Of a stretch of 64,000 nt of DNA, positions 10,551 through 61,335 are shown piece by piece. Each line of letters begins with the position of its first letter. The first letter of the stretch is position 1. The position numbers and the translations under genes were made by a program. The notes beneath the pieces were generated by a model. It was given only the letters and a program-made list of their open reading frames with translations. It was not told the origin of the DNA and did not search any database. Where the stretch lies: NCBI GenBank assembly GCA_031414955.1, contig JANOQV010000308.1, forward strand, positions 33,769 to 97,768, read 5' to 3'. Source of the DNA: Pedosphaera sp. Lineage in GTDB: Bacteria > Verrucomicrobiota > Verrucomicrobiia > Limisphaerales > SIBH01.

Positions 10551-11954
10551 CTACTTTTTGGGGGCGAGCATCCGGCGCACGGCGGCTTCGAGAGCGGCGC
10601 TGTGCTTTTTCCGGCCCTCGACCGTGGCCCAGGCGGCGGTCGAGCCGGAGGATTCAGCGAGAGTTCCAGTGAGGCCGCTGACGTTGGCCGCAGAGACGGA
10701 AGTGCCGGCGACGGAGTATTGCTGATCGCCGAAAGTGATGATGCTGCCGCCGGGGGCGATCACATCCACGGAGGCGGCGCGGTTGGCGTAGTTCGCAAGG
10801 TTGCCGGAGCGATCGCTGGCCGTGACGGAAATGACTTCGGGATAACTCGCCGGGTAGGTCTCGGTCTGGACGGGGGTGTTGCCGGCGGAGGCGATGAAGA
10901 CCACGCCCTGGTTGTGCGCACTGATGATGGTGTTGTGCATGAACGAGCTGTCGCCTTCGCCACCCAGGCTCAGATTCACAATCATCGCGCCGCCATTCAC
11001 GGCCTTGTAGATGCCGTTGGCGATATCGAAGGTGGTGGTTTGCTCGCCGCCCTCGGAATACACGTTCACCGGCAGGAGGCGCACGGTGGTGGACTTGTCG
11101 TCGCTATTGGCGGCCACGGCGCGGAGCAGTGTTTCGGCCATGGAAGTGCCGTGGGTGGGCGCACCGCCACTCGTGGTGTCGCTGACGGCGGTGCCGGGAA
11201 GCAGAAATTCGGAGAAGCGACCTTCCTTGGGCTGCACCGCCGTGTCCACCAGTCCGATGACCACGTATTGGCCGTCGGGCGACGCTTTGGGCGAAAGGCC
11301 CAACGGGCCACCTGGCGTGCCCAGGGGCCGCGAGCCTTCCGGACGGGAGACGTAATAATTATTGTCCACGCTCTCCACGGCGGGATTGCTGGCGAGATCG
11401 GTGCGCGCTGACTGCGCTGACGCATCATCATCGAAGCTCAGCCGGTAGGTGTTCTGGCCCTCGGCGCGGCCCACGATTTTGGCACCCAGCTTTTTCGCCA
11501 GGGCCTCGATGCTTTCCCCCGGCTTCAGCGTCACGATGAGTTCGTTGCCGATGAGACCCTTGTTTGACTTGGCCTCGGCGGCCTCGGCAGCGGGTTGAAT
11601 GGCCTGGGTGGCCTGGTTGCGGGAACTGCGAAAGACATAGAGCCGGGCCGGGCCGTTGGTCTCGGGAATAAGCGCGTAGCTGTAATCGCCGAGCAAGCGG
11701 CGCAGCGCGTCGCCGGGAGCCTTGCCGGTGAAGCGGGCCGGGATCCGGTTGGTGATGCCGGGGTCGAGATAAATGTGCCAGCCGCTGGAGCGGGCCACGC
11801 GCTGCAAGAGCTGCGGCACGGTCCAGGTCTCGATGCGGGCCTCGACGATGTCACGCTCGGCATCCCATTTAAGCAGGTCGGCGGAGAATGCGGCGGGAGT
11901 GGCCGTGATCCAAATCGTGATCGCCAGACTGAGTTGCTTCTGCCAGTGCTTCAT
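10551..11954 (-). CDS. Exported S8 (subtilisin-like) serine peptidase with N-terminal STN-like domain
   Basis: Signal peptide MKHWQKQ; triad motifs LVDTA, HGTSMA, GTSVSA; SAGN oxyanion-hole motif; NLSLG. Confidence 0.85.
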
Positions 11955-12181
11955 GCGCGCGCAATATAACGAAAGGAAACCCCAGCGCGACAGAAAGGTT
12001 GCTGACCGCACCTGCGGCCCGTGGTCGAAAGCGGAAGCGAGGCCTGCGCCGGCCCTCCGCACTCCGGCTCGGTGCGGTCCTGGGGCTGCTCATCGGCCGG
12101 GGTGTTCAGCCCGCGCGAATCTTGGGCGGAGCGTTTAGTCCTGGGAGCAAACCCGTTGCTGGGCCAACCGGCGGAAGGAGA

Positions 12182-12467: not shown

Positions 12468-15400
12468 ATGAGCACCGTCAGGAAAACCGTGCGCAAACTC
12501 TTACATCGCGTGACTGACCGCCTGAAACACTCCGGCGAGGGTGCGATCATCCCGGCGGACGAACCGCTCCGCATCGCCGCCGTCCGGCGCTACGACATTC
12601 TCGACACGCTGCCCGAGGCGGTCTTTGACGATTTGACCAAGCTGGCGGGAAACATCTGCGCCATGCCAGTGTCCCTGCTCGTGCTGGTGGACGAGCACCG
12701 CCTCTGGTTCAAGAGCAAGATCGGGGTCGAACTTTCCGAGGTGATGCGGGACGCGGCCCCCTGCGGCTACGCCATCCTCGGCGAGGAGTTGCTGGTGGTG
12801 GAGAACCTGCACCGCGATCCGCGCTTTGCGAAATCTCCGCTGGTCAAGGGCGGGCCGCAGTTGCGCTTCTACGCCACGACGCCGCTCCTCACCTCGGATG
12901 GCTTCCGCATCGGGACGCTCTGCGTGGCCGACCGGCGCCAGCGGCGGCTCTCGGCCCAACAACGCGAGGCCCTGCGCATCCTGGCCCACCAGGTCATGGC
13001 GCAACTGGAACTGCGGCGGCATCTCGTCGAACTGGAACGCAGCCTCTTCGAGCACCGCCAAACCCAGGCTGCGCTCAAAAACTCCGAGCTGTTTTACCAG
13101 ACACTCGTTGAGTCGTTGCCCCAGAACATCCTGCGCAAGGACACGCAGGGCCGGTTCGTCTTCGTGAACCAAAAGTTCTGCGCCACTCTCGGCCAGCCTT
13201 TGAGCGAAGTGATCGGCAAGACGGACCGCGATTTTTTCCCGGCCCACCTGGCCGACAAGTATCACCGCGACGACTTGCGCGTCATGGCCACGCGCGATCC
13301 CGTGGACACCATCGAGGCGAACCAGACCCCGCAAGGCGATCGCATCTACGTCCACGTCATCAAGACACCGCTCTACGATGCGGCCGGCAACGTGGTGGGC
13401 ATCCAGGGAATTTTCTGGGACGTGACCGAGCGGCGGAAGACCGAGGAAGCCCTGGCCTACGAGCGCGACCTGCTGCGCGCCTTGCTGGATAACATTCCCG
13501 ACCGGATATATTTCAAGGATCTGCAGTCACGTTTCCTGCGCATCAGCCTTTCGATGGCTCGTCGCCTGGGGGTGGGCAACCCGGAGGACGTGGTGGGCAA
13601 GACGGATTTTGATTTCTACCCCAAGACCATGGCCTCGGAGTTTTTCGCCGACGAGCAGCGCATCGTCCAGACCGGGCAGCCATTGATCAACAAACTGGAG
13701 CGCATCGTGGACCGGGACGGCCGCGAGAGCTGGGCCTCGGTCACCAAGGTGCCGCTCTACAACAAGTCCGGCACCGTCACCGGCATCATCGGCATCTCGC
13801 GCGACGTGACCAAACTGAAGGAGGCCGAGTCCGCCCTGGAGCACGCCCGCGACGCGGCGCTGGAGACGGCGCGGGTCAAATCCGAATTCCTGGCCAACAT
13901 GAGCCACGAGATTCGCACGCCGATGAACGCCATCACCGGCATGACCGACCTGCTGGCCGACACCCGGCTCGACGAGGAGCAGCGTGAATTCGTGGAGACC
14001 GTGCGGGGCAGCACCGACACGCTGCTCAACATCATCAACGACATTCTGGATTTCTCGAAGATCGAAGCGGGCAAGCTGACCATTGAGACGATTGACTTCG
14101 ACCTGCGCGAAACCATCGAGGACACGGCCGAGATGCTCGCGCAGCGCGCCCAGAGCAAGGGCGTGGAACTGCTCCATACCATCGAGTCCAACGTGCCGAC
14201 CCGGCTGCGCGGCGACCCGCACCGCATCCGCCAGGTGCTGGCCAACCTGGTGAGCAATGCGGCCAAATTCACGGAGCGCGGGGAGATTGCCATCCGGGTT
14301 TCACTCCGAGGCGAAACGGAGGCGGGGGCCCGCATCCGCGTCGCGGTGTGCGACACCGGCATCGGCATCGGGGCCAAGGCTCTGCCGCTCATTTTCCAGG
14401 CCTTCACCCAGGCCGACGGCTCCACCACGCGCCGTTACGGCGGCACCGGGCTGGGCCTCACCATTTCCAAGCAGCTCGTGGAAATGATGCAGGGGCAGAT
14501 TGGTGTCGAAAGCAAACCCGCCCAGGGTTCGACCTTTTGGTTCGAGCTGCCGCTGGCCAGACAACCCGCGCCGGAACCCACCGAGGCCGCCCCGGATTTT
14601 CAAAACCTTCGCGTGCTGGTCGTGGACGACAACGCCACCAGCCGCGAGTCCTTGCAACAGCAGTTGGGCCGATGGCGGTTGCGGAGCGCGACCGCGAGCG
14701 ACGCGCCCGAGGCCTTGAGCCAGCTCCGCTCCGCCGCCGCCGAAAACGATCCCTTCACCGTCGCCCTGCTCGACCTGCAGATGCCGGGCATGGACGGGTT
14801 GACCCTGGCCGGCGCCATCCGCCACGATCCGGCGCTGACCCGGACCGGCGTGATCATTCTCGCCCCTTTCGGCCAGCGGCTCGATGCCGACCTGATGCAC
14901 GAGGCCGGTGTCAGCCAGTGCCTGATCAAGCCGGTGAAACAATCGCGCCTGCTGGATTCGCTGGTCAACACCACGCACGCCCCCGTGGCTTCCGCTCCAC
15001 CCCACACGCCGCGCGCCGAGGCGGGGCCGCCCCAGATGAGGCCGGCCGTGCAGCCATTACGAATCCTGCTCGCAGAAGACAACGCCGTGAACCAAAAGCT
15101 GGCCCTGCGCCAGTTGCAGAAGCTCGGCTATGCCGCCCACGCCGTGGGCAATGGCGCGGAAGTGCTGCAAGAAGTTGAACGCTTCGGCTTCGACGTCATT
15201 CTCATGGACTGCCAGATGCCGGAGATGGACGGCTACGAAGTCACGATCCGACTGCGTGAATTTGAGAAACGCAATGCCGGTCGGCGCACGCCCGCCTACA
15301 TCATTGCCGTCACGGCGCACGCCATGGACGGCGACCGCGAGCGGTGTCTGAGCGCGGGCATGAACGATTACCTGACCAAACCGCTGCACATCGCGCAGCT

Positions 15401-16635: not shown

Positions 16636-18153
16636 TCACACGAGCACCTGTTCCACCACACGCCCATGCACGTCGGTCAGGCGGCGGTTGATGCCGTTGT
16701 GGTAGAAGGTCAGCCGTTCGTGATCGAGGCCGAGCAGGTGCAGAATGGTGGCGTGAAAGTCCGGGATGGTGACCTTGTTCTCGGCCACGAAATAGCCCAC
16801 TTCGTCGGTCGCGCCGTGGCGGTAGCCCTTCTTCACGCCCGCGCCGGCCAGGAAACAGGTGAAGGCGGTGGGGTGATGATCGCGGCCCGGTGAATCAATC
16901 CCCTGCGTGGCCGGCCCGCGCCCGAACTCGGTGTTCCAGATGACGAGCGTGTCTTCCAACAGGCCGCGTTGCTTGAGGTCCTGGAGGAGCGCAGCCACGG
17001 GGCGGTCCATGGTGGCGGCCTGGGTGTCGTGGTTCTGCTTCAGGTTTTCGTGGCCGTCCCAATTGATGCGCGGGCTGCCGAAGGCGCCGCCATTGAACAC
17101 CTGCACGAAGCGCACGCCGCGTTCGAGGAGGCGACGGGCCATGAGGCAATTGCGCGCGAAACCCTTGTTCGCGTCGTCGTCGAGTCCGTAGAGCTTTTTG
17201 GTGGCGGCGGATTCGCCGTCGAGTTTGGTCGCCTCGGGAATGCTGGCCTGCATGCGCGCGGCTAGTTCGTAGGAGCGCAGGCGCGCGGCGAAAGCGCCGT
17301 CGCCCGGATGCGCGTCGGCAAACTCGCGGTTCATCTCGGCGAGCAGCTTCATGTCCGCCGAGCGCGTGGCCGGGGCGATGTTGGTCGGCGTGTTGAGATC
17401 AACGATTGGTTCGTGGGAATTGGTGCGGAAAGGAACGCCCTGGTGGTTCGCCGGGAGAAAGCCCGAGGTCCAGTTGATGGAACCGCCGGCCATGAGTCCG
17501 CGCGGGTCGGGCAGCACGACGAAGGCGGGCAGGTTCTCGTTCTCCGTGCCCAGCCCGTAACTCAGCCATGCGCCCATGCTCGGAAAACCGTTCATGGTGA
17601 AGCCGCTGTTCATCTGGAAGGTCGCGGGCGTGTGGTTGTTGCTCTTGGCGAACATGGAGTGGATGAAGCACACGTCATCGACGCAGGAGGCGAGATGCGG
17701 CAGCAGACTGCTGACCCACGCGCCGGACTGGCCGTGCTGGCGAAATTCGTAGGGGCTTTTCATCACCTTCCCCGGCTGGCCGAAGAAGCCGAGGTTCTCG
17801 CCTTTGCCTTCGAGCGTCTGGCCGTGGAGCTTCTCCAACTCCGGCTTGTAATCGAACGTATCGAGATGGCTGACGCCGCCGCAGCAGAAGATTTGGAGGA
17901 CGCGCTTGGCCTTGGGCGGAAAGTGCGCAGGTCTCGCGGAGGAAATCACAGCCGACGACGCGGCGCGCGTTTGCTCGCGGTTCAACATCCACGCCAGCGC
18001 AATGCCGCCGAGGCCACCCGCGGTGTTCCACAGGAAATGTCGGCGTGAGAGCAGCGACGTGGCGAGTGGCTGCGCCGGTGAAGGCGCGGCTGTCTCTTCT
18101 TCAAACCGCCGTGTCGCTGCGGCGGCTACGCGAAGGGCGTATTCACCTGACAT
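16636..18153 (-). CDS. DUF1501 domain protein, Tat-exported
   Basis: LLSRRHFL leader, GGVSHLDTFDYKP, ARRLLERGVRFVQ, WDGH, TEFGR, GRDHHP; start uncertain (ATG 18153 overlaps the relic DUF1553 stop). Confidence 0.92.
   Translation of the reverse strand: MSGEYALRVAAAATRRFEEETAAPSPAQPLATSLLSRRHFLWNTAGGLGGIALAWMLNREQTRAASSAVISSARPAHFPPKAKRVLQIFCCGGVSHLDTFDYKPELEKLHGQTLEGKGENLGFFGQPGKVMKSPYEFRQHGQSGAWVSSLLPHLASCVDDVCFIHSMFAKSNNHTPATFQMNSGFTMNGFPSMGAWLSYGLGTENENLPAFVVLPDPRGLMAGGSINWTSGFLPANHQGVPFRTNSHEPIVDLNTPTNIAPATRSADMKLLAEMNREFADAHPGDGAFAARLRSYELAARMQASIPEATKLDGESAATKKLYGLDDDANKGFARNCLMARRLLERGVRFVQVFNGGAFGSPRINWDGHENLKQNHDTQAATMDRPVAALLQDLKQRGLLEDTLVIWNTEFGRGPATQGIDSPGRDHHPTAFTCFLAGAGVKKGYRHGATDEVGYFVAENKVTIPDFHATILHLLGLDHERLTFYHNGINRRLTDVHGRVVEQVLV
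18066..18129. repeat. GT(A/G)G-type REP-like doublet inside the DUF1501 5' end
   Basis: GTGGCTGCGCCGGTGAAGGCGCGG ... CCGCCGTGTCGCTGCGGCGGCTAC; each arm is self-complementary. Confidence 0.55.
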
Positions 18154-18280
18154 AAGCAAACTCCGTGGCATTAAGCAGCGCGCAGCAGACGTACGGCAGT
18201 CCGCACCCCTTCGCCGCCGGTGTGGCGCATTTCAGTTCTTCGCTCTCGACCTCGAGGTCGAGAGTCTGTCGTACAGAAGC
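18143..18280 (-). pseudogene. Relic 3' end of a DUF1553 gene (about 45 codons)
   Basis: Translates RQTLDLEVESEELKCATPAAKGCGLPYVCCALLNATEFAYVR*, aligning without gaps to RHALGRDATRDELKRGVAVAKARGLPHLCWALLNSTEFVYVQ* of the intact gene ending at 19157. Confidence 0.85.
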
Positions 18281-18282
18281 GT

Positions 18283-19167
18283 TCACAGTTTTTCCGAGCC
18301 GTTAAATTTAGGCTGAACTTTCTCTTCCCAGATTTTCAACAAAGTTGGCTTTCTTTGCTCAAATTCCTTTCGTTTGACCCTGACTTCTTTGGCGGTGAGT
18401 CCGGAGACATCAACAAATGTTTCGAGAATCTCCGGCCATCGAAGGCCTCTTTCGGCGAGGTAATGCATCCCGAACGCGTACGCATCAGCCTCAAATTCCG
18501 GGTTGTTTTCCGCGCTAAAATAGACCGGCAAATTCTGGGTGTAATGCTTCAGCTCATGCAGAAGGCGCGAATCCCGGACCATGATCTCTTCATTATTCCT
18601 GGGCAGGATAAGGATGGCGTACTGTTTCTTGGACTGGTTGGTTCCATAAATCCTGGTCTGCAAACTGGCAAAAAAGTATTCCAAATCTCCATACGACAAC
18701 CGTTGTTTGCGCTGCTCGCGCGAGGCGGAGTTTATCCGGCTCAGAAGCTGGTCTTTGAGTTCCTCCAACTGTTCTCGATACAGATAAAAATAGGCGAACT
18801 TGTTCCGGGCGTTCTCTTCATTGGACAGAAGGCCCTGCATCAATTCCTCTGGAATCAGGAAAGTCTTGATGCGAGCCAGTTCCGAGAAGGACAACTTGAG
18901 TTCTCGCACCGCAAAAGCCTGAGCTTCTGGCGATAATTCTTCGCGTAGATTGATCGCCAAAACTTGGTTAAGAGTTTCATCAACGAATGACGGGCGGCCT
19001 TGGGGTAACGGGCCGGCCGCCATGACGGTTGCTGCCACCAGCGCTGCCTGAACACTCAACACCAAATAACGACGGCGTGAAAGCAGCGTGCCGCCAGCGA
19101 CTTTCTGGCGGTTAGGCGCGGGCATTGGAGGGCCGGCGGAACGTCGGCGGCACGTTTCACTGAACAT
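18283..19167 (-). CDS. Putative Tat-exported zinc metallopeptidase (HExxH...ExEAD gluzincin-like), AT-richer than neighbours
   Basis: LLSRRRYLVLSVQAALVAATVMA leader; LLHELKHYTQ and PEFEADAYA motifs; many A/T-ending codons; start at 19167 or 19125. Confidence 0.7.
   Translation of the reverse strand: MFSETCRRRSAGPPMPAPNRQKVAGGTLLSRRRYLVLSVQAALVAATVMAAGPLPQGRPSFVDETLNQVLAINLREELSPEAQAFAVRELKLSFSELARIKTFLIPEELMQGLLSNEENARNKFAYFYLYREQLEELKDQLLSRINSASREQRKQRLSYGDLEYFFASLQTRIYGTNQSKKQYAILILPRNNEEIMVRDSRLLHELKHYTQNLPVYFSAENNPEFEADAYAFGMHYLAERGLRWPEILETFVDVSGLTAKEVRVKRKEFEQRKPTLLKIWEEKVQPKFNGSEKL
19087..19154. repeat. REP-like doublet directly downstream of the DUF1553 stop
   Basis: CGTGCCGCCAGCGACTTTCTGGCGG ... 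CCGGCGGAACGTCGGCGGCACG with terminal inverted repeat CGTGCCGCC. Confidence 0.6.
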
Positions 19168-22100
19168 AGACAAACTCCGTGGAGTTGAGCAGCGCCCAGC
19201 AAAGGTGCGGAAGGCCGCGCGCCTTCGCCACCGCCACCCCGCGTTTCAATTCGTCGCGGGTCGCGTCACGACCGAGCGCATGGCGATAAGCGGCGCGGAT
19301 GGCCTCCGGCAGATTCTCATTTGCTGCAGCCAGCGTGCGTGCGGCCAGCCTGTCCGCCTGCCGTTGCACGAACGAATTATTCATCAGCGCCAAGGCCTGG
19401 AGCGGCGTGGTCGTCACGCCCCGCCGGGGAGTCTTCACGGAAGGATCGGGACAGTCGAACGCATCGAGCAGCGGTTCTTTGCCGGAGTTCACATTCATGC
19501 GATAGACGGTGCGGCGGTTGAACTCGGGGCCGATCTTGTCCACAGGCAGATACGCATTGGCAGGAAACTTCAGAACCTCGAACGGGCGGTAACTCGGGCC
19601 GCCAGCCTGCAAGTTGATCTCCCCGCTGACCATCAGCATCGCGTCGCGCAATGTCTCCGCCTCCAGGCGGCGCGGCGGAAAGCGCCAGAGAAGCTGATTG
19701 TCAGCATCGAGAACGGCGGCGCGGCGAAAAGTTTCAGGACGGGGAACGCTCCCCTGCCGATAGGCCGCTGAGTTGACGATCAAGCGGTGCAAGGCCTTGA
19801 CACTCCAGCCGTGGTCGATGAATTGCGTCGCGAGCCAGTCGAGTAACTCCGGGTGGCTGGGCGTGGCACCGCTTACGCCAAAGTCGTTGGGTGTCGAGAC
19901 GAGACCCTGGCCGAAATGGAGATGCCAGACGCGATTGACCATGACACGCGCCGGCAGCGGATTGCGCCGGTCACTCAGCCAATCGGCGAAGCGCACCCGG
20001 CGCTGCGCCTCCGGGGCATCGGCGGGCAGTCCGAAGTCAGGCTCCAGATCGACGATGACTGAAAGCGCGCCCGGGGTGACAATTTCATCCGGCGACTTCA
20101 CATCGCCGCGCTTGAGCCGGCGCGTCGGCGCGGGTTGGACGCGCGTGCCGACATAAGAAACAGGCAGGGGTGGAATCGCTTTCAACTCGCCCTTGGTCCG
20201 AGCGAGTTGAGCCAGCGCAGCTTCACGATGAAGCCGTTGCACTTCGGTCAGACTTGCGAGCATCTCCTCGCGCGACACCACGAATCCGCCCGAGCGAAAG
20301 GAAGCCTGAACCTCGGCAACGCTCAAAGCCCGGTCGAACAAGGACGCCTGTTTGATTTCACCCCGCAGATACGGTTTGCCACCGCCCTGGTGGCGCAGGC
20401 CCAACAGGACATGCGACTGGCCCGCCTTGTATGTCTGCAACGGCCCGCCGGGCGTGTAGGGCTGGCCGTATGGTTCACCATTACGAAAGACGGCCACGCT
20501 GTGGTCGGCACGATAAACGACGGCGACGTGCATCAACTCACCCGGCGACGCGTTCTCTTCCGGCGCGTCGAGATCCTTGGTGCGCTGGAAGCCGCTGCTC
20601 CCGGCGGTCCACTTCCGCGACTGGCGTTCACCGAACACGATGGCGTCGAACACGCTGCCATCCTTGTTCTCAATCGAGATGGCCGCGCCACCACCTTGCC
20701 TCAAGTCAGCCAACGTGACCCAGGCTTCGAGTGTTTTCTCGCGGAGGTCGCTTGGCAGGGGCGAGGTTTGGAAGAAATCGCCATCCTGAATCAGACGCAA
20801 CCGCCCATTGGTAACGCTCGCGCCGCCCTTGAGTTGGCCCGGCATCACGGCGTTGGTCGCACCGTCAAACTTCCAGCACACCATCGGCTGCGGCGCAGGA
20901 GCATTCGTGCCCAAATGCGGCTGGTGCCGGACGGCGGCGGTCTGGTAAGCCTCGGTTTCGATGCGCGCCACAGCCGACTCCGCTTCGGATTGTTCGCTCT
21001 TGAGCTTCGCCGTGCGGGCTTCCCGTTCCTTGAGTTCAGCGGGCGTGGCGAGAGAACGCTCGCCGTGTTTCACCCCCTCGAAGACCGACTTGATGCGGTA
21101 GTACTCCTCATGGGAAATCGGATCAAACTTGTGCGAGTGGCAGCGGGCGCAATTGATGGTGAGGCCGAGAAAGGTCTGACCCACCACGCTGATCAAATCC
21201 TCCAACTCCTCTTCGCGAGTGATGGCTTTCTGGGTCGCATTGGCCTGGCTGTTGCCCGCTTCGTCCCACGGACCGCAGACCAGGAGGCTCGCGCCGATGA
21301 TGGAATCCGCCGTCACCGATTCGACCGCATCGCCGGCAATTTGCTCGCGCATGAAACGGTTGTATGGTTTGTCCTCGTTGAAACTCTTGATGACGTAATC
21401 GCGGTAGTGCCAGGCACGGTCGCGAAGCTTGTCATACTCAAAGCCCTGGCTCTCGGTGTAGCGAGCCGCATCCAGCCAGTGCCGGCCCCAGCGCTCACCA
21501 TAACGGGGCGAGGCCAGCAATCGCTCCACCAGCCTCGCATAAGCGTCCGGCGACTTGTCCTCCGCGAACTGTTCGATCTCCGCCGGAGCCGGGGGCAACC
21601 CAACAAGATCAAACGTCAACCGACGGATGAGCGTGGCGCGGTCGGCAGGAGGCGCGAGCGCGAGACCATTGGTGAGCAGCCGGGCGTGGATGAACTGGTC
21701 GATACGGTTGGTGACGGATACGGCCAAACTGCGCAAGGGTTGCAAAGACCAATGCGAACTGCGCGCGGATTTAGCAACCCCATCAGGCCATTGCGCACCG
21801 TGATCAATCCAGGACCGCAATAAGCCAACCTGCTCGGCAGACAATCGTTCGCCCTTGGCCGGCATCACGTTTTCCGAATCGAGTCCGGCCACCAGGTGAA
21901 TCAGCCGGCTCTCGTGGCTCCGACCTGGCACGATGACGGCTCCGCCATCGCCGCCCTTGAGCGCGGCGGATTTCAGGTCCAGGCGCAATCCAGCTTTCTG
22001 CTTCTCGACCCCGTGGCAGGAATCGCAGTGCCGGGTGAAGAGGGGTTGAATGTCTCGGATGAAATCGGCTGGCCCAGAAGCAGGAGGCGGCAGCTTGGAA

Positions 22101-22204
22101 AGATCCGGGGGGGCGGCGGCCTCAAGCGAGGGCAGGAACCACAGGACACAGCCGAGCATCAATAGAATGTTCGTCTGCTTCCGCCATGGCCGCGCGCGAT
22201 TCAT
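19157..22204 (-). CDS. Planctomycete cytochrome c + DUF1549 + LamG-like + DUF1553 protein
   Basis: Signal peptide, CDSCH and CARCH, YGERWGRHWLD, PSHPELLDWLA, TPLQAL, central LamG-like segment. Confidence 0.93.
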   Translation of the reverse strand: MNRARPWRKQTNILLMLGCVLWFLPSLEAAAPPDLSKLPPPASGPADFIRDIQPLFTRHCDSCHGVEKQKAGLRLDLKSAALKGGDGGAVIVPGRSHESRLIHLVAGLDSENVMPAKGERLSAEQVGLLRSWIDHGAQWPDGVAKSARSSHWSLQPLRSLAVSVTNRIDQFIHARLLTNGLALAPPADRATLIRRLTFDLVGLPPAPAEIEQFAEDKSPDAYARLVERLLASPRYGERWGRHWLDAARYTESQGFEYDKLRDRAWHYRDYVIKSFNEDKPYNRFMREQIAGDAVESVTADSIIGASLLVCGPWDEAGNSQANATQKAITREEELEDLISVVGQTFLGLTINCARCHSHKFDPISHEEYYRIKSVFEGVKHGERSLATPAELKEREARTAKLKSEQSEAESAVARIETEAYQTAAVRHQPHLGTNAPAPQPMVCWKFDGATNAVMPGQLKGGASVTNGRLRLIQDGDFFQTSPLPSDLREKTLEAWVTLADLRQGGGAAISIENKDGSVFDAIVFGERQSRKWTAGSSGFQRTKDLDAPEENASPGELMHVAVVYRADHSVAVFRNGEPYGQPYTPGGPLQTYKAGQSHVLLGLRHQGGGKPYLRGEIKQASLFDRALSVAEVQASFRSGGFVVSREEMLASLTEVQRLHREAALAQLARTKGELKAIPPLPVSYVGTRVQPAPTRRLKRGDVKSPDEIVTPGALSVIVDLEPDFGLPADAPEAQRRVRFADWLSDRRNPLPARVMVNRVWHLHFGQGLVSTPNDFGVSGATPSHPELLDWLATQFIDHGWSVKALHRLIVNSAAYRQGSVPRPETFRRAAVLDADNQLLWRFPPRRLEAETLRDAMLMVSGEINLQAGGPSYRPFEVLKFPANAYLPVDKIGPEFNRRTVYRMNVNSGKEPLLDAFDCPDPSVKTPRRGVTTTPLQALALMNNSFVQRQADRLAARTLAAANENLPEAIRAAYRHALGRDATRDELKRGVAVAKARGLPHLCWALLNSTEFVYVQ

Positions 22205-22786: not shown

Positions 22787-24001
22787 TTAACGCATCTTGA
22801 TGGTTTGCATGGGCGGAGGCGGAGGCGGCGCCATCGTGCGAGTGGAGGTTTCAATCTTCTCCGCCATTTTCAGCACGAACTCGGTGGTGTTCTCCCCGCG
22901 CTTCTTCTTGACGTTGTCGATGCCGCGCTGCACCTGGCCGCGCTTGCTGCAATAGAGAAGGGCGGTGTCTTCCGTGATGAGACCCTTCTCGTAGGCTTCG
23001 AGACAGGATTGATCAAAGCTGCGCCAGCCAAAGGTGCAGCTGGCTTCAATGATCTCATGGAAGCTTTTGCCCTCCCCTTCGCCGAAAACAATGCTCTCTT
23101 TGGTGCGCAAACTCGAACCCATGATCTCGAGCAAGGCGTGCCGCCCGCCGCCCACTTTCGGCGCGAGGCGCTGGCCGACAATCCACCGGAGCGTGTCGGC
23201 CAGGCGGTGCCGGACCTGCTCCTGCTCCTCGGTGTCGAACATGCCGAGAATACGGTTGATGGTCTGGCCCGCGTCAATCGTGTGCAGCGTGCTCATGACC
23301 AGATGGCCCGTCTCAGCCGCGTTCAGGGCAATCTCCACCGTGGCCCGGTCGCGCATCTCACCGACGAGAATAATCTTGGGCGCCTGGCGCAAGGCGGCGC
23401 GCAGGCCGCTGGAAAAGTTGTCGTAGTCGGAACCCAACTCGCGCTGGTTGATGGTGGCCATCTTCTGCGAATATACGAACTCGACCGGGTCTTCGAGCGT
23501 GACGATATGAACCGCCTTGGTGCCGTTGATCTCATCCAACACCGCCGCCAGCGTGGTCGATTTGCCGGAACCGGTGGCCCCGGTCACGAGTACCAGGCCG
23601 GTCTTCTCCTTGGCCGGCAGATGGAGAATCTCGGGCAACTGAAGCTCGGCCAAGGTGGCAATCTTGGTGTTCAACTTGCGCAGCACAATCGAGTAAAAGC
23701 CGCGCTGGGCAAAGATGTTCACGCGGAATCGGGCCCGGTCGATCACCGAATAGGAGGTGTCGCAGGAACCGGTGCGCAGCAAGTCATCCATCAGGCGGGG
23801 ATTGCCCCCGATAAGATTGAGGGCCAGCATTTCCGTCTGGAACGGGGTCAGCATTTCGACTGGCGGATCCAGCGGCACTGGCACCAACACGCCGTCGGAC
23901 TCCACCTGCGGCGGCTTGTCCACGGTAAAAATCAGATCGGACACATTGGCCCGAAAATCGAGCATGGTCCCCAGGATATAATCGAGTTCGTTGCGGCGCA
24001 T
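22787..24001 (-). CDS. pilU: PilT/PilU family type IV pilus retraction ATPase (PilU-like)
   Basis: TGATGSGKST, TLEDPVE, LRQAPKIILVGEMRD, AETGHLVMSTLH; lacks the AIRNLIRE motif. Confidence 0.8.
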   Translation of the reverse strand: MRRNELDYILGTMLDFRANVSDLIFTVDKPPQVESDGVLVPVPLDPPVEMLTPFQTEMLALNLIGGNPRLMDDLLRTGSCDTSYSVIDRARFRVNIFAQRGFYSIVLRKLNTKIATLAELQLPEILHLPAKEKTGLVLVTGATGSGKSTTLAAVLDEINGTKAVHIVTLEDPVEFVYSQKMATINQRELGSDYDNFSSGLRAALRQAPKIILVGEMRDRATVEIALNAAETGHLVMSTLHTIDAGQTINRILGMFDTEEQEQVRHRLADTLRWIVGQRLAPKVGGGRHALLEIMGSSLRTKESIVFGEGEGKSFHEIIEASCTFGWRSFDQSCLEAYEKGLITEDTALLYCSKRGQVQRGIDNVKKKRGENTTEFVLKMAEKIETSTRTMAPPPPPPMQTIKMR

Positions 24002-24003
24002 GA

Positions 24004-25107
24004 TTACAGGGCGGCCACTTCGTCATCGAGTGGCGGCGTTGCAAGGAAGGGACGGAACTTTTTCTTGTCGAGGCACTTGTCGTAGGCTTCTTCCGGCGAG
24101 ACACGCTTCATGCGCAAGTGGTCCATGATGGCGTCATCGAGCGGCACGTTGCCGATCTTCTTACCGACTTGAATCATGCCAGGAAGCTGATGGGTCTTGC
24201 CTTCGCGCACCAAGTTCGCGATGGCGGTGGTGAAGACGAGAATTTCCAGCGCGGCCACCCGGCCCTTCTTGTCCACGCGCTTGAAGAGGTTCTGGGCCAC
24301 CACGCCCTTCAAGGCCTCGGAAAGCGTGGCCCGAATCTTGTTCTGCTGATCGGCCGGAAACACGTCGATGATACGATCCACCGTCTTGGCCGCGCTCTGA
24401 GTGTGGAGCGTGCCGAAGACGAGATGCCCCGTGCTGGCCGCAGTGATGGCCAGTTCAATGGTTTCCAAATCGCGCAATTCGCCAACCAAAACAATGTCCG
24501 GATCTTCGCGCAACGCACCGCGCAACGCCGAAGCAAAGGAGCGCGTATGAATGCCGACCTCGCGGTGGTTCACCAGACAGCCCTTGCTCTCATGCACGAA
24601 CTCAATCGGATCCTCGATGGTCAGGATGTGGTCGCGCCGGTTCCGGTTCGCGTAGTCCACCATCGCGGCGAGGGTGGTCGATTTGCCGGAGCCAGTCGGC
24701 CCGGTCACGAGCACCAGCCCCTTGTGCAACATGCAGAACTTCTTCAGCACTGGTGGCAGGGGTGCCTCCAACTTTTCAAAGTCCTCGAAGGACAAAACCT
24801 TGGACGGAATCTGGCGGAACACCGCTCCGACGCCGTTCTTGTGGTTGTAAAAATTGGCCCGGAAGCGCGACACGCCCGGAATCTCATAGCCGAAATCCAC
24901 GTCACCAGTCTCTTCGAACTGTTTGATCTTGTACTCCGGCGTGATCTCGTAGAGCATCGCCTTGAGGGTGTCATTCTCGAGCGGCGGGAACTCGACCCGC
25001 TGCAACTCGCCGTTGATGCGCAGAATGGGTGGGTTACCGGACGAGAGGTGAACGTCCGAAGCTTTTTGCTCGAACATCAAATTGAAGAAAGCATCAATTT
25101 TCGCCAT
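24004..25107 (-). CDS. pilT: Type IV pilus retraction ATPase PilT
   Basis: MAKIDAFF start, TGPTGSGKST, TIEDPIE, LREDPDIVLVGE, AIANLVRE (AIRNLIRE-like). Confidence 0.93.
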   Translation of the reverse strand: MAKIDAFFNLMFEQKASDVHLSSGNPPILRINGELQRVEFPPLENDTLKAMLYEITPEYKIKQFEETGDVDFGYEIPGVSRFRANFYNHKNGVGAVFRQIPSKVLSFEDFEKLEAPLPPVLKKFCMLHKGLVLVTGPTGSGKSTTLAAMVDYANRNRRDHILTIEDPIEFVHESKGCLVNHREVGIHTRSFASALRGALREDPDIVLVGELRDLETIELAITAASTGHLVFGTLHTQSAAKTVDRIIDVFPADQQNKIRATLSEALKGVVAQNLFKRVDKKGRVAALEILVFTTAIANLVREGKTHQLPGMIQVGKKIGNVPLDDAIMDHLRMKRVSPEEAYDKCLDKKKFRPFLATPPLDDEVAAL

Positions 25108-25270
25108 ACAATCAGCTACAGCGGCACGATGCAGAAGGAACCTTAGCCGGGAAATGAAGAATGAGCATGAGGCATAAAGCAGGAGACGGGATGGAACGGG
25201 ACGGAGCGCCGAGCAGCGCGCAGCAAGAGTGCGCCGCCAACGGCCGATCCGCGCGAGGCTCGGCGTTCCG

Positions 25271-26338
25271 ATGAACTCGCTCGCTGCGCAACTCTGCGAC
25301 CACCTCCGGCGCAAAAATCCCCTGCCCTTCGCCGAGTTCATGCGCGCCGCGCTCTACGATCCGGTGCACGGCTACTACGCGCGGGCCGAGGGCCAGATTG
25401 GGAAGCACGGCGACTTCATGACCAGTGTCAGTGTCGGGTCGCTCTTTGGAAAACTGCTCGCCTTCCAGTTCGCCCGCTGGCTGGAGTTGGCGCGGGAGCC
25501 GGACTCGAGATTCCAAATCGTCGAGGTCGGCGCACATGATGGCCGGCTCGCGAGGGATATTCTGGAGGGTTTGGAGGAGCGTGATCCCGATCTGCTTCAA
25601 TCAGTCGAATACTGGATCGTCGAACCTGGGGAGGCGCGCCGATCGGCCCAGAAAGCACAGCTCGACCGCTTTCAAAATGTCCGCTGGTTTGCCCACCCTT
25701 CGCAGTTCGTGCGACCCGTGACGGGAATCATTTTCTCCAACGAGTTGCTTGATGCCATGCCGGTGCATCCATTTGCCTGGAATGCCGGCGCGCGGACTTG
25801 GGAAGAAATGGGGGTGACCTTGGTTGGCCAACGGTTCGCCTGGACCCGAATGTCGCGGCCCTCCACACCTCCCCCCGTTCTCCCCGCTGAACTGCTGGCC
25901 GTGTTGCCCGACGGATACCTGCTCGAACTTGCGCCGTTGTCCACGCAATGGTGGCGCGGCGCGGCGGCGGCCCTGGGCCGCGGCCATCTCATGACCATCG
26001 ACTATGGTGGCGAGATCGAAGAACTGCTCTCGCCGGCGCGCACCTCGGGCACCCTGCGCGCCTACTCCCGGCACCGCGTCGGCCCGGTTGTGCTGGCGAA
26101 TCCGGGTGAGCAGGACATCACGGCGCATGTGAACTTCACGGATATCCGAATGGCCGGCGAGTCAGCGGGCCTGCGCACGCTGACCTTCACCACTCAAAGC
26201 CAGTTTCTCACGGCCATCGCACGCGAGCTTTGGACGCGCACCGGCTCATGGCCGCAAGAACAGGTGCGGCAGTTTCAGACCCTCACTCACCCCGAGCATC
26301 TGGGGCGGCCATTTCGCGTGCTGGTTCAGACGCGATGA
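25271..26338 (+). CDS. MidA/NDUFAF7 family SAM-dependent methyltransferase
   Basis: FMRAALY.P..GYY, GDFMTS, EVGAHDG, SNELLDAMP, IDYG, PGEQDITAHVNF. Confidence 0.92.
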   Translation: MNSLAAQLCDHLRRKNPLPFAEFMRAALYDPVHGYYARAEGQIGKHGDFMTSVSVGSLFGKLLAFQFARWLELAREPDSRFQIVEVGAHDGRLARDILEGLEERDPDLLQSVEYWIVEPGEARRSAQKAQLDRFQNVRWFAHPSQFVRPVTGIIFSNELLDAMPVHPFAWNAGARTWEEMGVTLVGQRFAWTRMSRPSTPPPVLPAELLAVLPDGYLLELAPLSTQWWRGAAAALGRGHLMTIDYGGEIEELLSPARTSGTLRAYSRHRVGPVVLANPGEQDITAHVNFTDIRMAGESAGLRTLTFTTQSQFLTAIARELWTRTGSWPQEQVRQFQTLTHPEHLGRPFRVLVQTR

Positions 26339-28733
26339 CCTCGCGCGCGGTCGCAGTGCGCCAGGCACCTTCTCTCACCGAGATCGTGGTCGAGCCTGCG
26401 GCTCCAGTGTGGAGGACGGCGGCCCCAGTGCGGCGCAGCCGGGAGAGCAACGCGTGGCTGGCCCGGCGCGACAGGGATGTCTCGGAATCCGCAATCACGA
26501 TCAGCCGCGGCTTCAACACCGCGAGCCATTCCGCCGCCAAAGGCTCGTCCTTGACCGGCAATCCGGCGATGACGATGTCGGCCCGCAAGTCGGAATGCCG
26601 TTTAACAAAAGCGTTCTGCCCGGCCTTGCCCAACTGCGGAACCAGCAGCACGCGCACGCCCTCAAACTCGCCCCACGCCACGATGGCGTTGTCTTCCGCC
26701 AGCGGAAATCGCTCCGCAGGCCCGGGGTGCAGGATGATCCAGGGCCGTGCAGCGAAGCCATTCGTGGCGAGGCGGCGCACGCGACCAAGCTTTTCCAACT
26801 CGGTGAGCGTGCTTTGGTAGGCGGCGGAGCGAAATGCCACCGGCGAAACGAGAATGTCCTCGAAGCGAAAAGCCGTTCGCAGTTCCGACACTCCACCAAA
26901 GAAATCGGAATCCCCATGCGTCAGGACCAGGTGTTCGAGACGATTCACCCCGCGTGCTTGGAGAAATGGTTTCAACGTGAATCCCGCTCCGCTCCGGCTG
27001 CCGCAATTGATCAGCCACTGCTCGCCCCCTCGCGCTGGTTCGAGGTAAATGATGTGGGAGCCGCCCACCGGCAGCACGGTCAACCGGTGCCAGGCGCGCT
27101 CCTGACGCCAGTCGATGATCCAAGCCGCTAAAAACAGCACAGCCGCGAATCCGAAGAACCAGCGCGCCCGACGGAAAGTGAACCAGCCGCCGCACAGCGC
27201 GAGGAGCAGACCGTAATAGAGCAAGAACAGCAGCGGACCGGGCGCGCGGACATGGCACCAGGCGGCGGGCAACTCGGCGGCGCGTTCGCTCAACCAGGTC
27301 ATGAACCACATGAAGAACCAGCCGCTGTGGTTAAACAACTCGGTCAAGAACGGTGCCAGGTCGCCCGTGACCAGCGCGCCCAAACCGCTCATCAGCGCGA
27401 GCGAGCTGATGGGCACGACGACCAGATTCGCCAGCAGGCTGCCCGGCGTGAAGAGATGGAAGTAATAAGCCATCAACGGCGCGGAACCGATGAACGCGGC
27501 CAGCGAGGTGGCAAACCCTTTCCAGACCAGGTGACTGATTTCGATCAGAAACCGCTGTCCGCGAGGACGCAATTCGTAGGGCAGCAATGGATCGAGGAGG
27601 AACAGGCGAACGCGCAGCCGCTCAATCGGCGGCGCGAGCAACGCCAGGCTGAGCACGACGAAGAACGAAAGCTGGAAACCGGCCTGGAACAATTGTTCCG
27701 GCTGCCAGACCAAAATGACACACGCGGCGGTGGCCAGGGAATTGAGCAGACTCGGCGGACGTTTCAGCGCAGAGCCGAGGATGATGACACTCATCATGAC
27801 CGTGGAGCGAATGGCCGAAGCCTGCCAACCCGTCGCCGCAGTATAGAACCAGATGAGACCAACCACCGTGCAGCCTCCGATCAGCCGCGGCACCGCCACC
27901 GCCCGCAGCAGCGCCAGAAAAATCCAGGCGATGAGCGCGATGTGCAGGCCGCTGATGGCAAAGATGTGCATGGTGCCCGAGCGCATGAACGGCTCCGAAA
28001 CTTCGGACGTGAGCGCCGTCTGCCAGCCGAGCAGCATGGCCCATTGCAGCCGCAGCGGTTCATCTTCCACCGGCAGCCCGCGCGCGAGTGTGCGCTGCGC
28101 CCAGACGCGGAATCGTTCCGCCATCGGTAGCGGCACCGGAACGCCGAAAACCTTCCAGAGCTGCGGCGATTCGATCTTCAACTCGTAGTGAAGGCCGCGC
28201 AGCGCAAGGTGTCGGCCATAATCGAAGAGTTCCACCGCCACCGGCGGGGGCGGTGGTAGAGCCAGGCCGGAGACTTCTACCCGCTGCCCGTCGAAGAAAT
28301 CCCGGGCCAGGACACCGCCCGTCCTCGACATGATTCGCCCGTGCGCGGGCTGCCAAGGACCGCGCCCGAGGCGGACTGCGGTGACTTTCAACTCGGCCAG
28401 GGTGTGGGATTTCTCCACGCTGCCCTGGAGGAAGATTCTTTGCGAAGGCGTAGCGACGATTTCACCGCGCGCTTCGATGAGTTTTGGGTTATCGCCAAGG
28501 AGCAAGCGAAGATCTTGCGGCGAGACGACCGTCGTTCGCGAAGTCAGGTTCGACCACCCGAAGAGCAACAACGCCGCCGGGAGCAGCAACCCGCGCAGGG
28601 TGCTCGCGATCAAAGCCGCGAGCAGGAGTCCGAACGCGACCAGCCAGGCCGCAAGCAACGGCGCCTCAACAAAATGTCCGAGCACCACTCCCGTGCCATA
28701 GAGCAAAGCCACGGGCACCATCGGCTGTTTCAT
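26283..28733 (-). CDS. comEC: ComEC/Rec2 DNA-uptake channel protein
   Basis: SGTMHIFAISGLHI, SAIRS, GFQLSF, ANLVVVP; C-terminal metallo-beta-lactamase-like domain is degenerate; overlaps the MidA 3' end by 56 bp. Confidence 0.92.
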   Translation of the reverse strand: MKQPMVPVALLYGTGVVLGHFVEAPLLAAWLVAFGLLLAALIASTLRGLLLPAALLLFGWSNLTSRTTVVSPQDLRLLLGDNPKLIEARGEIVATPSQRIFLQGSVEKSHTLAELKVTAVRLGRGPWQPAHGRIMSRTGGVLARDFFDGQRVEVSGLALPPPPPVAVELFDYGRHLALRGLHYELKIESPQLWKVFGVPVPLPMAERFRVWAQRTLARGLPVEDEPLRLQWAMLLGWQTALTSEVSEPFMRSGTMHIFAISGLHIALIAWIFLALLRAVAVPRLIGGCTVVGLIWFYTAATGWQASAIRSTVMMSVIILGSALKRPPSLLNSLATAACVILVWQPEQLFQAGFQLSFFVVLSLALLAPPIERLRVRLFLLDPLLPYELRPRGQRFLIEISHLVWKGFATSLAAFIGSAPLMAYYFHLFTPGSLLANLVVVPISSLALMSGLGALVTGDLAPFLTELFNHSGWFFMWFMTWLSERAAELPAAWCHVRAPGPLLFLLYYGLLLALCGGWFTFRRARWFFGFAAVLFLAAWIIDWRQERAWHRLTVLPVGGSHIIYLEPARGGEQWLINCGSRSGAGFTLKPFLQARGVNRLEHLVLTHGDSDFFGGVSELRTAFRFEDILVSPVAFRSAAYQSTLTELEKLGRVRRLATNGFAARPWIILHPGPAERFPLAEDNAIVAWGEFEGVRVLLVPQLGKAGQNAFVKRHSDLRADIVIAGLPVKDEPLAAEWLAVLKPRLIVIADSETSLSRRASHALLSRLRRTGAAVLHTGAAGSTTISVREGAWRTATAREVIASEPAREMAAPDARGE

Positions 28734-28800
28734 CGCGCCCTCCATGTGCCTGGGGTGAACGGCTCCATGTTCGTGTGGAAGAAACGCGGCGGGCGCGCGG

Positions 28801-59832: not shown

Positions 59833-61335
59833 CTAGGTCGCAAGTTGCTGGACCACCTTCCCCGCCACATCCGTCAGCCGATAATCGCGGCCTTGGAAAC
59901 GGTAGGTGAGCTTCTCGTGGTCGAGGCCAAAGAGGTGCAGCAGCGTGGCGTGAAAATCATTCACATGCACGGGATCCTTGGTGACGCCCCAGCCGAGTTC
60001 ATCCGTCTCGCCCACCACCTGGCCACCGCGCACTCCGCCGCCGGCCATCCACGTCGTAAAGGCAGACGGATGATGATCACGTCCGCTGATGCGGCCCTTG
60101 AACGCAGGCCGGTTCTCGCCCAGCGGGGTGCGGCCAAACTCGGAAGCCCAGACCACCAGCGTGCTGTCGAGCAAGCCGCGCTGCTTGAGATCGCGCAGCA
60201 ATGCGCCGAGCGGCTGATCCACCACGGCGCAGTTGAACGGCAAATCCGTCTCGAGATCGTTGTGATGGTCCCAGCTCGCGTGGTGAATGCTCACGAAGCG
60301 GACCCCGCGCTCGACCAGCCGGCGGGCCAGCAGGCAGTTGCGCGCAAAAGTCTTGAACGTGCCCGTGCCGCCACCGCGCTGGGTCTTGGTGTGTTTGCCG
60401 GCGTCGCGATTGACGCCGTAGGCTTCGAGAGTCTCAGGCTTCTCGCCGGAGAAATCCGTCAGTTCGGGCGCGCTCAACTGCATCCGCGCGGCCAGTTCGT
60501 AATTCGCCATGCGGCTGGAAATTTCCGGATCGCCCACGGCCTTCTGCCGCAGCGTGTTCAGGTCGCGCAAAGCATCCAACCCGTAGTGCCGCATCTCGGC
60601 GGTGACTCCGGCGGGGTTGTGCAAGTCCATCACCGGCTCGCCTTCGTTGCGAAAGGCCACGCCACCGAAGACACTCGGGAGGAAGCCGCTGCTGAACATC
60701 GTGTTGCCCCCGCTCGCCGCCCGCCCCGCCGTCAACACCACGTAGCCGGGCAGATTCTGCGAGGCGCTGCCCAGCGCGTACGCGACCCAGGACCCGGCGC
60801 TCGGCCGACCGAAGCGCTGGAAGCCGGTGTACATGAGCAGTTCGCCGGGATGATGATTGAAGGCCTCGGTGTGCATCGAGCGCACCAGCGCCAGATCGTC
60901 CGCGCACGAGCCGAGGTGCGGCAGCAGTGCGGACATCTCCAGACCGCTCCGGCCATAGCGCCGGAATGGATACGGGCTGCCCAGCAATCGGGCGGACTCC
61001 TTCTGGATGAAAGCGAAGCGCACATTCTTCGTGAGCGACTCGGGCAGAGGCTGCCCGTTCAACTCGGTCAACTTCGGTTTCGGATCGAACAGGTCGAGCT
61101 GGCTCACGCCGCCTTCCATGTAAATGAAGATGCACTGCTTGGCCTGGGATGCGAAGTGCGGCGGACGCGGGGCCAACGGATTCCACGGCGCTCCCATTTT
61201 CGGCGGCTCGCCGGCGAGCAATCCGTCCCGCCCGAGCAACGTGGCCAACGCCACGCCGCCCACGCCGCGCGCGGTGCTGACGAGAAAATCACGGCGGGTG
61301 AAGTTGAGGATTTCGCGCGCGTCCATCGTGTTCAT
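59833..61335 (-). CDS. DUF1501 domain protein, Tat-exported (second paralog)
   Basis: TRRDFL, GGVSQLDLFDPKP, ARRLVERGVRFV, WDHH, SEFGRTP, GRDHHP. Confidence 0.93.
   Translation of the reverse strand: MNTMDAREILNFTRRDFLVSTARGVGGVALATLLGRDGLLAGEPPKMGAPWNPLAPRPPHFASQAKQCIFIYMEGGVSQLDLFDPKPKLTELNGQPLPESLTKNVRFAFIQKESARLLGSPYPFRRYGRSGLEMSALLPHLGSCADDLALVRSMHTEAFNHHPGELLMYTGFQRFGRPSAGSWVAYALGSASQNLPGYVVLTAGRAASGGNTMFSSGFLPSVFGGVAFRNEGEPVMDLHNPAGVTAEMRHYGLDALRDLNTLRQKAVGDPEISSRMANYELAARMQLSAPELTDFSGEKPETLEAYGVNRDAGKHTKTQRGGGTGTFKTFARNCLLARRLVERGVRFVSIHHASWDHHNDLETDLPFNCAVVDQPLGALLRDLKQRGLLDSTLVVWASEFGRTPLGENRPAFKGRISGRDHHPSAFTTWMAGGGVRGGQVVGETDELGWGVTKDPVHVNDFHATLLHLFGLDHEKLTYRFQGRDYRLTDVAGKVVQQLAT

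Follow-up and report, generated by a model that had tools for sequence, protein, structure and literature searches.

Among the described systems close to the locus analysed here is the PSCyt/PSD1-DUF1501 module of PVC bacteria, and the available parts of its description (PMC3542564) show the same gene pair, the same LamG domain and a twin-arginine leader on DUF1501. In our locus, by contrast, the module is split by a foreign gene with a duplicated junction, a case that does not occur in those parts of the description. In the lpl genes of S. aureus (PMC2568036), the copied unit likewise consists of one gene's 3' end and the next gene's 5' end, but there it shuffles paralogues via a central conserved box, whereas here it brackets a single unrelated gene. 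Displacement of rhs C-terminal ends (PMC2935791) also leaves a relic gene end downstream, and recombination of a circular intermediate was proposed for it; here, however, both ends are of the same kind, toxin tips and immunity genes are absent and there is one relic only. Gain of a signal peptide through an N-terminal segment (PMC5952966) is similar in that the export segment changes as a block. Our case differs in that an existing twin-arginine (RR) leader appears to have been spliced at RR to another, and in that Tat-containing groups had been removed from the earlier study. A literature search returned no paper on a cargo gene lying between duplicated junctions. For the inserted protein, the nearest structural counterparts are small gluzincins (the minigluzincins jannalysin 4jix, abylysin 4jiu and selecase 4qhf; the M48 peptidases 3c37 and BepA 6sar; Wss1; IrrE/ImmA-like M78), which likewise carry HExxH on one helix and a Glu 18 residues on, on the next helix.

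Layout of the locus and the duplicated junction

We analysed a 64,000-nucleotide stretch of Pedosphaera sp. DNA, referred to as the window. A sequence-only reading of it had placed an AT-richer, foreign-looking ORF between a DUF1553 and a DUF1501 gene, starting where DUF1501 would be expected to start. The ORF is there as described, on the minus strand at 18283-19167 (294 aa and a stop). Its ATG lies inside the last codons of DUF1553, a gene that spans 19157-22204, and the ATG of DUF1501, at 18159, is placed in a like manner. The motifs that had been pointed out, LLSRRRYL in the cargo and LLSRRHFL in DUF1501, HELKH (204-208) and EFEADAYA (224-231), are all present, and in the second operon of the window DUF1553 and DUF1501 overlap at 61332/61335. 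The order along the locus is DUF1553 end and leader, cargo, DUF1553 end and leader, DUF1501, with the following features:

19157..22204, minus strand: DUF1553-type gene (PSCyt1-PSCyt2-LamG-PSD1), 1015 aa, the upstream host gene, intact
19068..19300, minus strand: junction copy 1, the final 47 codons of DUF1553 together with a start and an n-region to RR that derive from DUF1501
19175..19178, minus strand: GGAG, 7 nt before the cargo ATG and inside DUF1553, a possible Shine-Dalgarno sequence
18283..19167, minus strand: cargo gene (protein P0001), 294 aa, chimeric leader and zincin-type mature domain
19069..19167, minus strand: residues 1-33, the borrowed n-region, which ends SRRR and lacks six codons relative to DUF1501 and P0002
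19018..19068, minus strand: residues 34-50, hydrophobic region native to the cargo, with the likely cleavage site (VMA)
18544..18558, minus strand: HELKH (H204, E205, H208), predicted zinc site and catalytic Glu, invariant in 9/9 rows
18490..18492, minus strand: E226, on the following helix of the model, invariant and predicted to be the third zinc ligand
18036..18286, minus strand: junction copy 2, the remnant plus the real DUF1501 start and n-region to RR
18143..18286, minus strand: decayed copy of the last 47 codons of DUF1553, frame still open
18243..18264, no strand: perfect palindrome of 22 bp within the remnant, present nowhere else in the genome
16636..18159, minus strand: intact DUF1501 gene, which encodes 507 aa when read from the overlapping ATG

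The compositional claim also held. Codons 61-294 of the cargo have a GC content of 0.479 (DUF1553 0.627, DUF1501 0.644, genome 0.623) and a GC3 of 0.58, against 0.74 for DUF1553 and 0.83 for DUF1501, and only 0.05% of the 18,236 genome windows of 702 bp are as low in GC. Codon adaptation, judged against a crude reference set, is less extreme than GC and falls at the 15th percentile. Codons 1-60 have a host-like GC content of 0.65. A foreign origin of the cargo gene is supported by its composition. An assembly artefact was ruled out since the two junction copies are only 75% alike and further contigs agree: a 2,541-nt contig from the possible source run covers all junctions with 0 differences, and 17912-18264 and 19040-19190 are matched by contigs from two other studies, each of which differs at 2 positions.

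What the sequence-only reading had missed is a second, gap-free copy of the last 47 codons of DUF1553 (18286-18143) behind the cargo. The repeat pairs 18142-18243 with 19156-19257 at 74.5% identity over 102 bp (E 3e-11), and the two DUF1553 ends lie 1,014 bp apart. Identity of the remnant to the live end climbs in the 3' direction (19/42, 33/48 and 42/54 nt), and a second short repeat spans the codons leading to RR (18036-18056 and 19068-19088, 86%). The remnant's GTG overlaps the cargo stop by 4 nt, without any trace of a DUF1501 body between the two, and its end overlaps the DUF1501 ATG. We compared both copies with 25 orthologous DUF1553 ends, 5 of 30 having been excluded for low identity. 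The remnant departs from conserved columns at 12 positions and the live copy at 4, while residues absent from all 25 orthologous ends number 13 and 1, respectively. By this measure, the upstream copy behaves as a live gene and the downstream copy as a relic. Among 31 ends, the live copy is the best DNA match of the remnant (94/144 nt; runner-up 92), and in a tree of the 144-nt ends the two copies fall close together, though with only 68% support and another ortholog in between. The palindrome in the remnant is one of 8 perfect palindromes of at least 22 bp in the genome and has no second copy there; neither it nor the leader starts form repeat families in the genome. An empty site is found in the G002 ortholog, where DUF1501 follows straight after DUF1553. 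In the closest relative by DUF1501 DNA (G005, 85%), the locus ends at a contig edge and is uninformative.

The insert is one gene, with no integrase, transposase or recombinase in it, and a search of the cargo against phages, plasmids and viral contigs for a mobile origin gave no match. An integrative element with att repeats was considered and rejected because the repeats are about 250 bp long and at most 75% identical and the insert lacks a recombinase. A scan of the locus found no sigma-70 promoter-like site and no minus-strand terminator-like site. The genome as a whole gave 41 DUF1553-like and 47 DUF1501-like matches, a content that fits a PVC bacterium as portrayed in the accessible parts of PMC3542564 and PMC5615132. 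The operon has two PilT-like ATPases and a ComEC competence gene as its immediate upstream neighbours (window 22787-25341 and 26283-28745), and with such neighbours DNA uptake is a conceivable route for the cargo. Elsewhere in the window, 10551-12062 encodes an S8 subtilase that looks exported, carries a fervidolysin-like prodomain and is unusual in its N-terminal part.

The predicted peptidase and its hybrid leader

By its sequence, P0001 belongs to a tiny new family of putative zincins. A first word search returned three clusters, a fourth, which is a fragment, was found later, and 1.84 billion representatives contained five strong matches. In P0001, P0002 and P0014 the mature part has the same length, 243 aa, and the three align gap-free at 72% identity. 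The homolog P0003 is free-standing behind a TPR-like gene (locus L002) and has a GC content of 0.485 against 0.61 and 0.63 for its neighbours; a duplicated-junction structure was not found around it in that locus. The ORF that follows P0003 (L002:2476-3546) has no Pfam match and matches contig C97 of the source genome weakly by tblastx (E 9e-06). The cargo was not found in the 40 relatives and 400 other genomes of the order that were searched. A search of 400 genomes of the class gave one marginal match with stops (L023), and L021, from genome contigs, is a match at motif level alone. P0012 and P0015-P0017 were rejected as family members since the feature in common is the catalytic helix pair only. 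Atlas matches at or below 0.90 are unnamed or DUF6647/M78/Tox-MPTase-like and serve as leads only.

H204, E205, H208 and E226 all persist in relatives as distant as 29% identity. A model of residues 58-294, built from 9 alignment rows (pLDDT 75, pTM 0.75), has short strands, one helix with HExxH, another with the Glu and, at the C-terminus, a long helix; HExxH is helical in it, and E226 lies on helix 166-182 of the model, successive to the HExxH helix. Folding with the leader included lowered the pLDDT to 52, and a structure search with that model gave no match. In a wide structure search, rows 1-25 and 42 of 50 rows in all were zincin-fold by title, at Z scores of 5.6 or less that possibly reflect just a common arrangement. 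Rows 1-25 include M48 peptidases, minigluzincins, BlaR1, Wss1 and YbeY (Z 4.4-5.6), fold classes that we assigned from the titles. About 100 model residues align to nearly the whole 104-109-residue chains of the minigluzincins (Z 5.0-5.1, rmsd 3.2-3.5). Unlike these small gluzincins, to which it is 10-16% identical, P0001 has extra helices, a long charged C-terminal helix and an export leader. Foldseek with the cargo model returned nothing at E 0.001, and a PDB sequence search returned a chance match only.

The proposal of a gluzincin zinc site of the M48/M56/M78 kind is supported as to a zincin-type site and not as to those families. HExxH and the downstream Glu are invariant, while P0001 has no match to M48, M56 or M78 in Pfam and no Pfam or NCBIfam model reaches its cut-off; the best, PF06114, gave E 0.043 and 14 bits against a cut-off of 22, in 3/9 family rows. 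Because the list of structure matches is uniformly zincin and the motif agrees with it, though each score is weak, we consider P0001 likely to be a gluzincin-type zinc peptidase.

The leaders of the family were compared with that of DUF1501 on either side of the twin arginines. With RR omitted, the n-regions of P0002 and P0014 scored 68 and 70 against the window DUF1501, values reached in 0/2000 shuffles. Past RR, the same two proteins scored 59 and 57 against P0003 (0/2000 shuffles) and 22 and 16 against DUF1501, which 323 and 1592 of 2000 shuffles equalled. The n-region of P0001 itself does not match DUF1501 at the protein level (17 vs 18 for shuffles, RR omitted) and matches it modestly at the DNA level (2/2000 shuffles). 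Compared with P0002, the P0001 leader has two deletions, of 6 and 7 codons, both in frame; the borrowed part in P0001 has since drifted, with six codons lost. P0002 and P0014 begin MSGD/MSGE. In 17/25 orthologous operons the DUF1501 start precedes the last nucleotide of the DUF1553 stop by 11 nt; 3 of those 17 DUF1501 proteins begin MSGD or MSGE. By their N-termini, P0002, P0014 and P0013 would lie in a DUF1553/DUF1501 operon as well.

It had been suggested that the cargo captured both the translational coupling and the Tat signal of DUF1501. The overlapping start and the n-region to RR bear this out, but the region after RR matches P0003 and not DUF1501, and P0003 carries an RR leader of its own in an unrelated context, an outcome that the sequence-only reading had itself named as counting against it. 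Likely, only the start and the n-region up to RR are of DUF1501 origin, and not the whole export signal. A scripted pattern finds S-R-R-x-Y-L at residues 30-35 of P0001, 24 uncharged residues and VMA at 48-50, which we take to fit the Tat rule of an RR motif, an uncharged hydrophobic stretch and a cleavage site. Tat-signal HMMs matched neither P0001 nor the neighbouring DUF1501, P0003 matched PF10399 weakly (E 0.008), and the host TatC scored above its cut-off. P0001 is probably Tat-exported. The leader of P0011 we take from its motif to be lipoprotein-type, and the P0010 sequence is cut just before a cysteine similar to that of P0011. Export looks to have been native to the cargo family before the leaders were joined. 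The start of the cargo leader (window 19133-19152) resembles a GC-rich stretch after the DUF1553 stop at L138, in another genome, and the long n-region may therefore descend from a small repeat element.

Origin of the arrangement

In the reading we favour, and hold with somewhat better than even confidence, one insertion that duplicated about 250 bp of the junction brought the zincin gene between copies that have since diverged, and the gene encodes a likely Tat-exported zinc endopeptidase. The left join would lie at the shared twin-arginine codons, so placed that the cargo kept its own hydrophobic and cleavage regions and took the overlapping start and n-region of DUF1501. Since the DUF1501 start lies inside DUF1553, a duplicated DUF1553 end carries that start along, which would account for the capture of the leader front; with a borrowed DUF1501 start, transcription and translation of the cargo would therefore proceed as for DUF1501 itself. 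Thanks to the right-hand copy, DUF1501 would have kept its original start, and the coding part of that copy would have decayed afterwards. The likeliest route would be a template switch or one crossover with a small circle. The event is likely old because this hybrid leader is shared by relatives at 72% identity. The protease would most likely be a passenger that acts in the periplasm or outside and is not needed by the DUF1553/DUF1501 pair.

Gene ends are duplicated elsewhere in the source genome, in part around toxin-antitoxin genes. It contains 314 spaced direct repeats, 19 rows of which pass a filter that requires just one of the copies to hold a gene end. Four loci that were opened besides the cargo locus repeat the end of a host gene, namely a DUF1553-type gene, an amidohydrolase, an oxidoreductase and a SIS-domain gene, presumably glmS-like; the relic starts at ATG and is open in 2 of them and not in the other 2. 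Two more loci look alike by scan (a class II tRNA synthetase; ParE and PIN genes), and most of the remaining filtered rows look like intergenic repeats. The cargo insertion looks like one product of a general insertion habit in this genome. At L069 (G000:C229, 2369-2518 and 1238-1363), a DUF1553-type 3' end is repeated at 79% behind a PIN gene and two small ORFs, and the relic has its own ATG, is open and carries an in-frame deletion. At L070 (G000:C215, 4388-4561 and 5638-5812), an amidohydrolase end is repeated at 87% behind PIN genes; the upstream gene seems to shift frame near its end and the downstream copy reads through. The oxidoreductase, the SIS-domain gene, the class II tRNA synthetase (several copies) and the ParE/PIN locus are found at L071, L072, L073 and L074 (G000:C40, C292, C83 and C165). 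L075 (G000:C267:9900-13540, repeats 11368-11506 and 13140-13278) looks like a diversity-generating retroelement, with an FGE-sulfatase-domain gene, a reverse transcriptase and a repeat, at 84% identity, with an AAC-rich downstream copy.

The same order of parts would result from two steps, in which the DUF1553 end and a whole DUF1501 were duplicated in tandem and the body of the first DUF1501 was then replaced at the RR codons. DUF1501 modules are often duplicated, according to PMC3542564. We nevertheless regard this route as unlikely, since the 4-nt overlap of cargo stop and remnant leaves no trace of a DUF1501 body and the other gene-end duplications in the source genome flank their cargo without a second whole gene. 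Another possibility is that the cargo is a tolerated passenger, non-functional or at least not proteolytic, whether as a zincin-like fold used for binding and not for cleavage or as a gene that is slowly decaying. The weak fold scores, the two leader deletions relative to P0002 and the failure to find the cargo in 400 other genomes of the order speak for it. Yet both deletions keep the frame, the mature part is free of indels at 72% identity, and the four catalytic and ligand residues persist down to 29% identity, so that we give this explanation a low probability.

The sequence-only reading had gone further and seen in the DUF1553/DUF1501 junction a variable slot that lends exported effectors the coupling and Tat signal of the operon. 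Such junctions do accept genes: 7/28 in the source genome, the cargo included, and 4/81 elsewhere with DUF1501 in reach. The 28 source-genome DUF1553 genes with DUF1501 downstream on the same contig divide into 17 direct junctions, 2 short gaps, 7 inserts and 2 far-apart pairs. Among the six inserts besides the cargo are genes for proteins of the four-helix-bundle, PD-(D/E)XK and HsdR-N-like types, for a GDSL esterase and for a methylase, and an uncharacterised gene on the opposite strand; the DUF1553 end is repeated in none of them. Some junction inserts are also exported (GDSL esterase, sulfatase, DUF6786, and a GH5 with an RR leader). But the genes at these junctions are enzymes, nucleases or a methylase, each with a start of its own, and a repeated DUF1553 end was seen in 0/105 cases in 88 other genomes and in 0/8 other gapped junctions examined in the source genome. 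The 105 ends, from genomes of the order, were collected with the remnant as query, a sample that favours one subfamily and short flanks; 77 were direct, 4 had intervening genes, 21 had no DUF1501 within 1-2.5 kb and 3 ended at a contig edge. Outside the source genome, no match of the remnant lay within an open frame shorter than 139 aa. The GH5 leader was by inspection unlike that of the neighbouring DUF1501, the insert brings no immunity-like gene, array of alternatives or recombinase, and the cargo family already had an RR leader. The junction tolerates genes, the role of a leader-donating cassette is not supported, and we judge the slot proposal very improbable. The GH5-like gene (L130:208-1296, G500) has its own RR leader and lies directly between DUF1553 and DUF1501 with no duplicated junction. 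A polymorphic toxin cassette was rejected as well, since only the DUF1553 remnant lies between cargo and DUF1501 and none of the 105 ends has an alternative cargo behind a duplicated end.

A possible relay frame and wider meaning

Overlapping genes can be coupled by termination-reinitiation, as PMC6728339 describes. The remnant is an open 47-codon frame, and it may, on slight grounds, hand ribosomes that leave the cargo on to DUF1501. Only 8/17 orthologs have GGAG ahead of the ATG; DUF1501 may therefore lean on coupling, which the relic could preserve. The exact overlap and the lack of indels in the remnant favour a relay in a suggestive way only; a neutral copy would be expected to stay open 30-52% of the time. 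As for the remnant freeing the DUF1501 ribosome site from a hairpin, accessibility was within the range of the 17 orthologs. In a broader and rather speculative picture, which we think unlikely to hold as a whole, this lineage would insert accessory genes without a recombinase, duplicating a host gene end each time; in coupled operons selection would keep the relic open as a 47-codon relay, and overlaps of the PSD1/DUF1501 type would give the newcomer a start and the front of a leader. If that were true, PSD1/DUF1501 operons would be a repeated source of re-addressed exported proteins.

The locus says little on what DUF1553 and DUF1501 do. It is a tidy case of ordinary gene borrowing and not a general effector slot. 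It adds a small unnamed family of predicted exported zincins, and it illustrates a way in which a foreign gene can come into a translationally coupled operon with both neighbours unbroken, and in which two twin-arginine leaders can be joined at RR.
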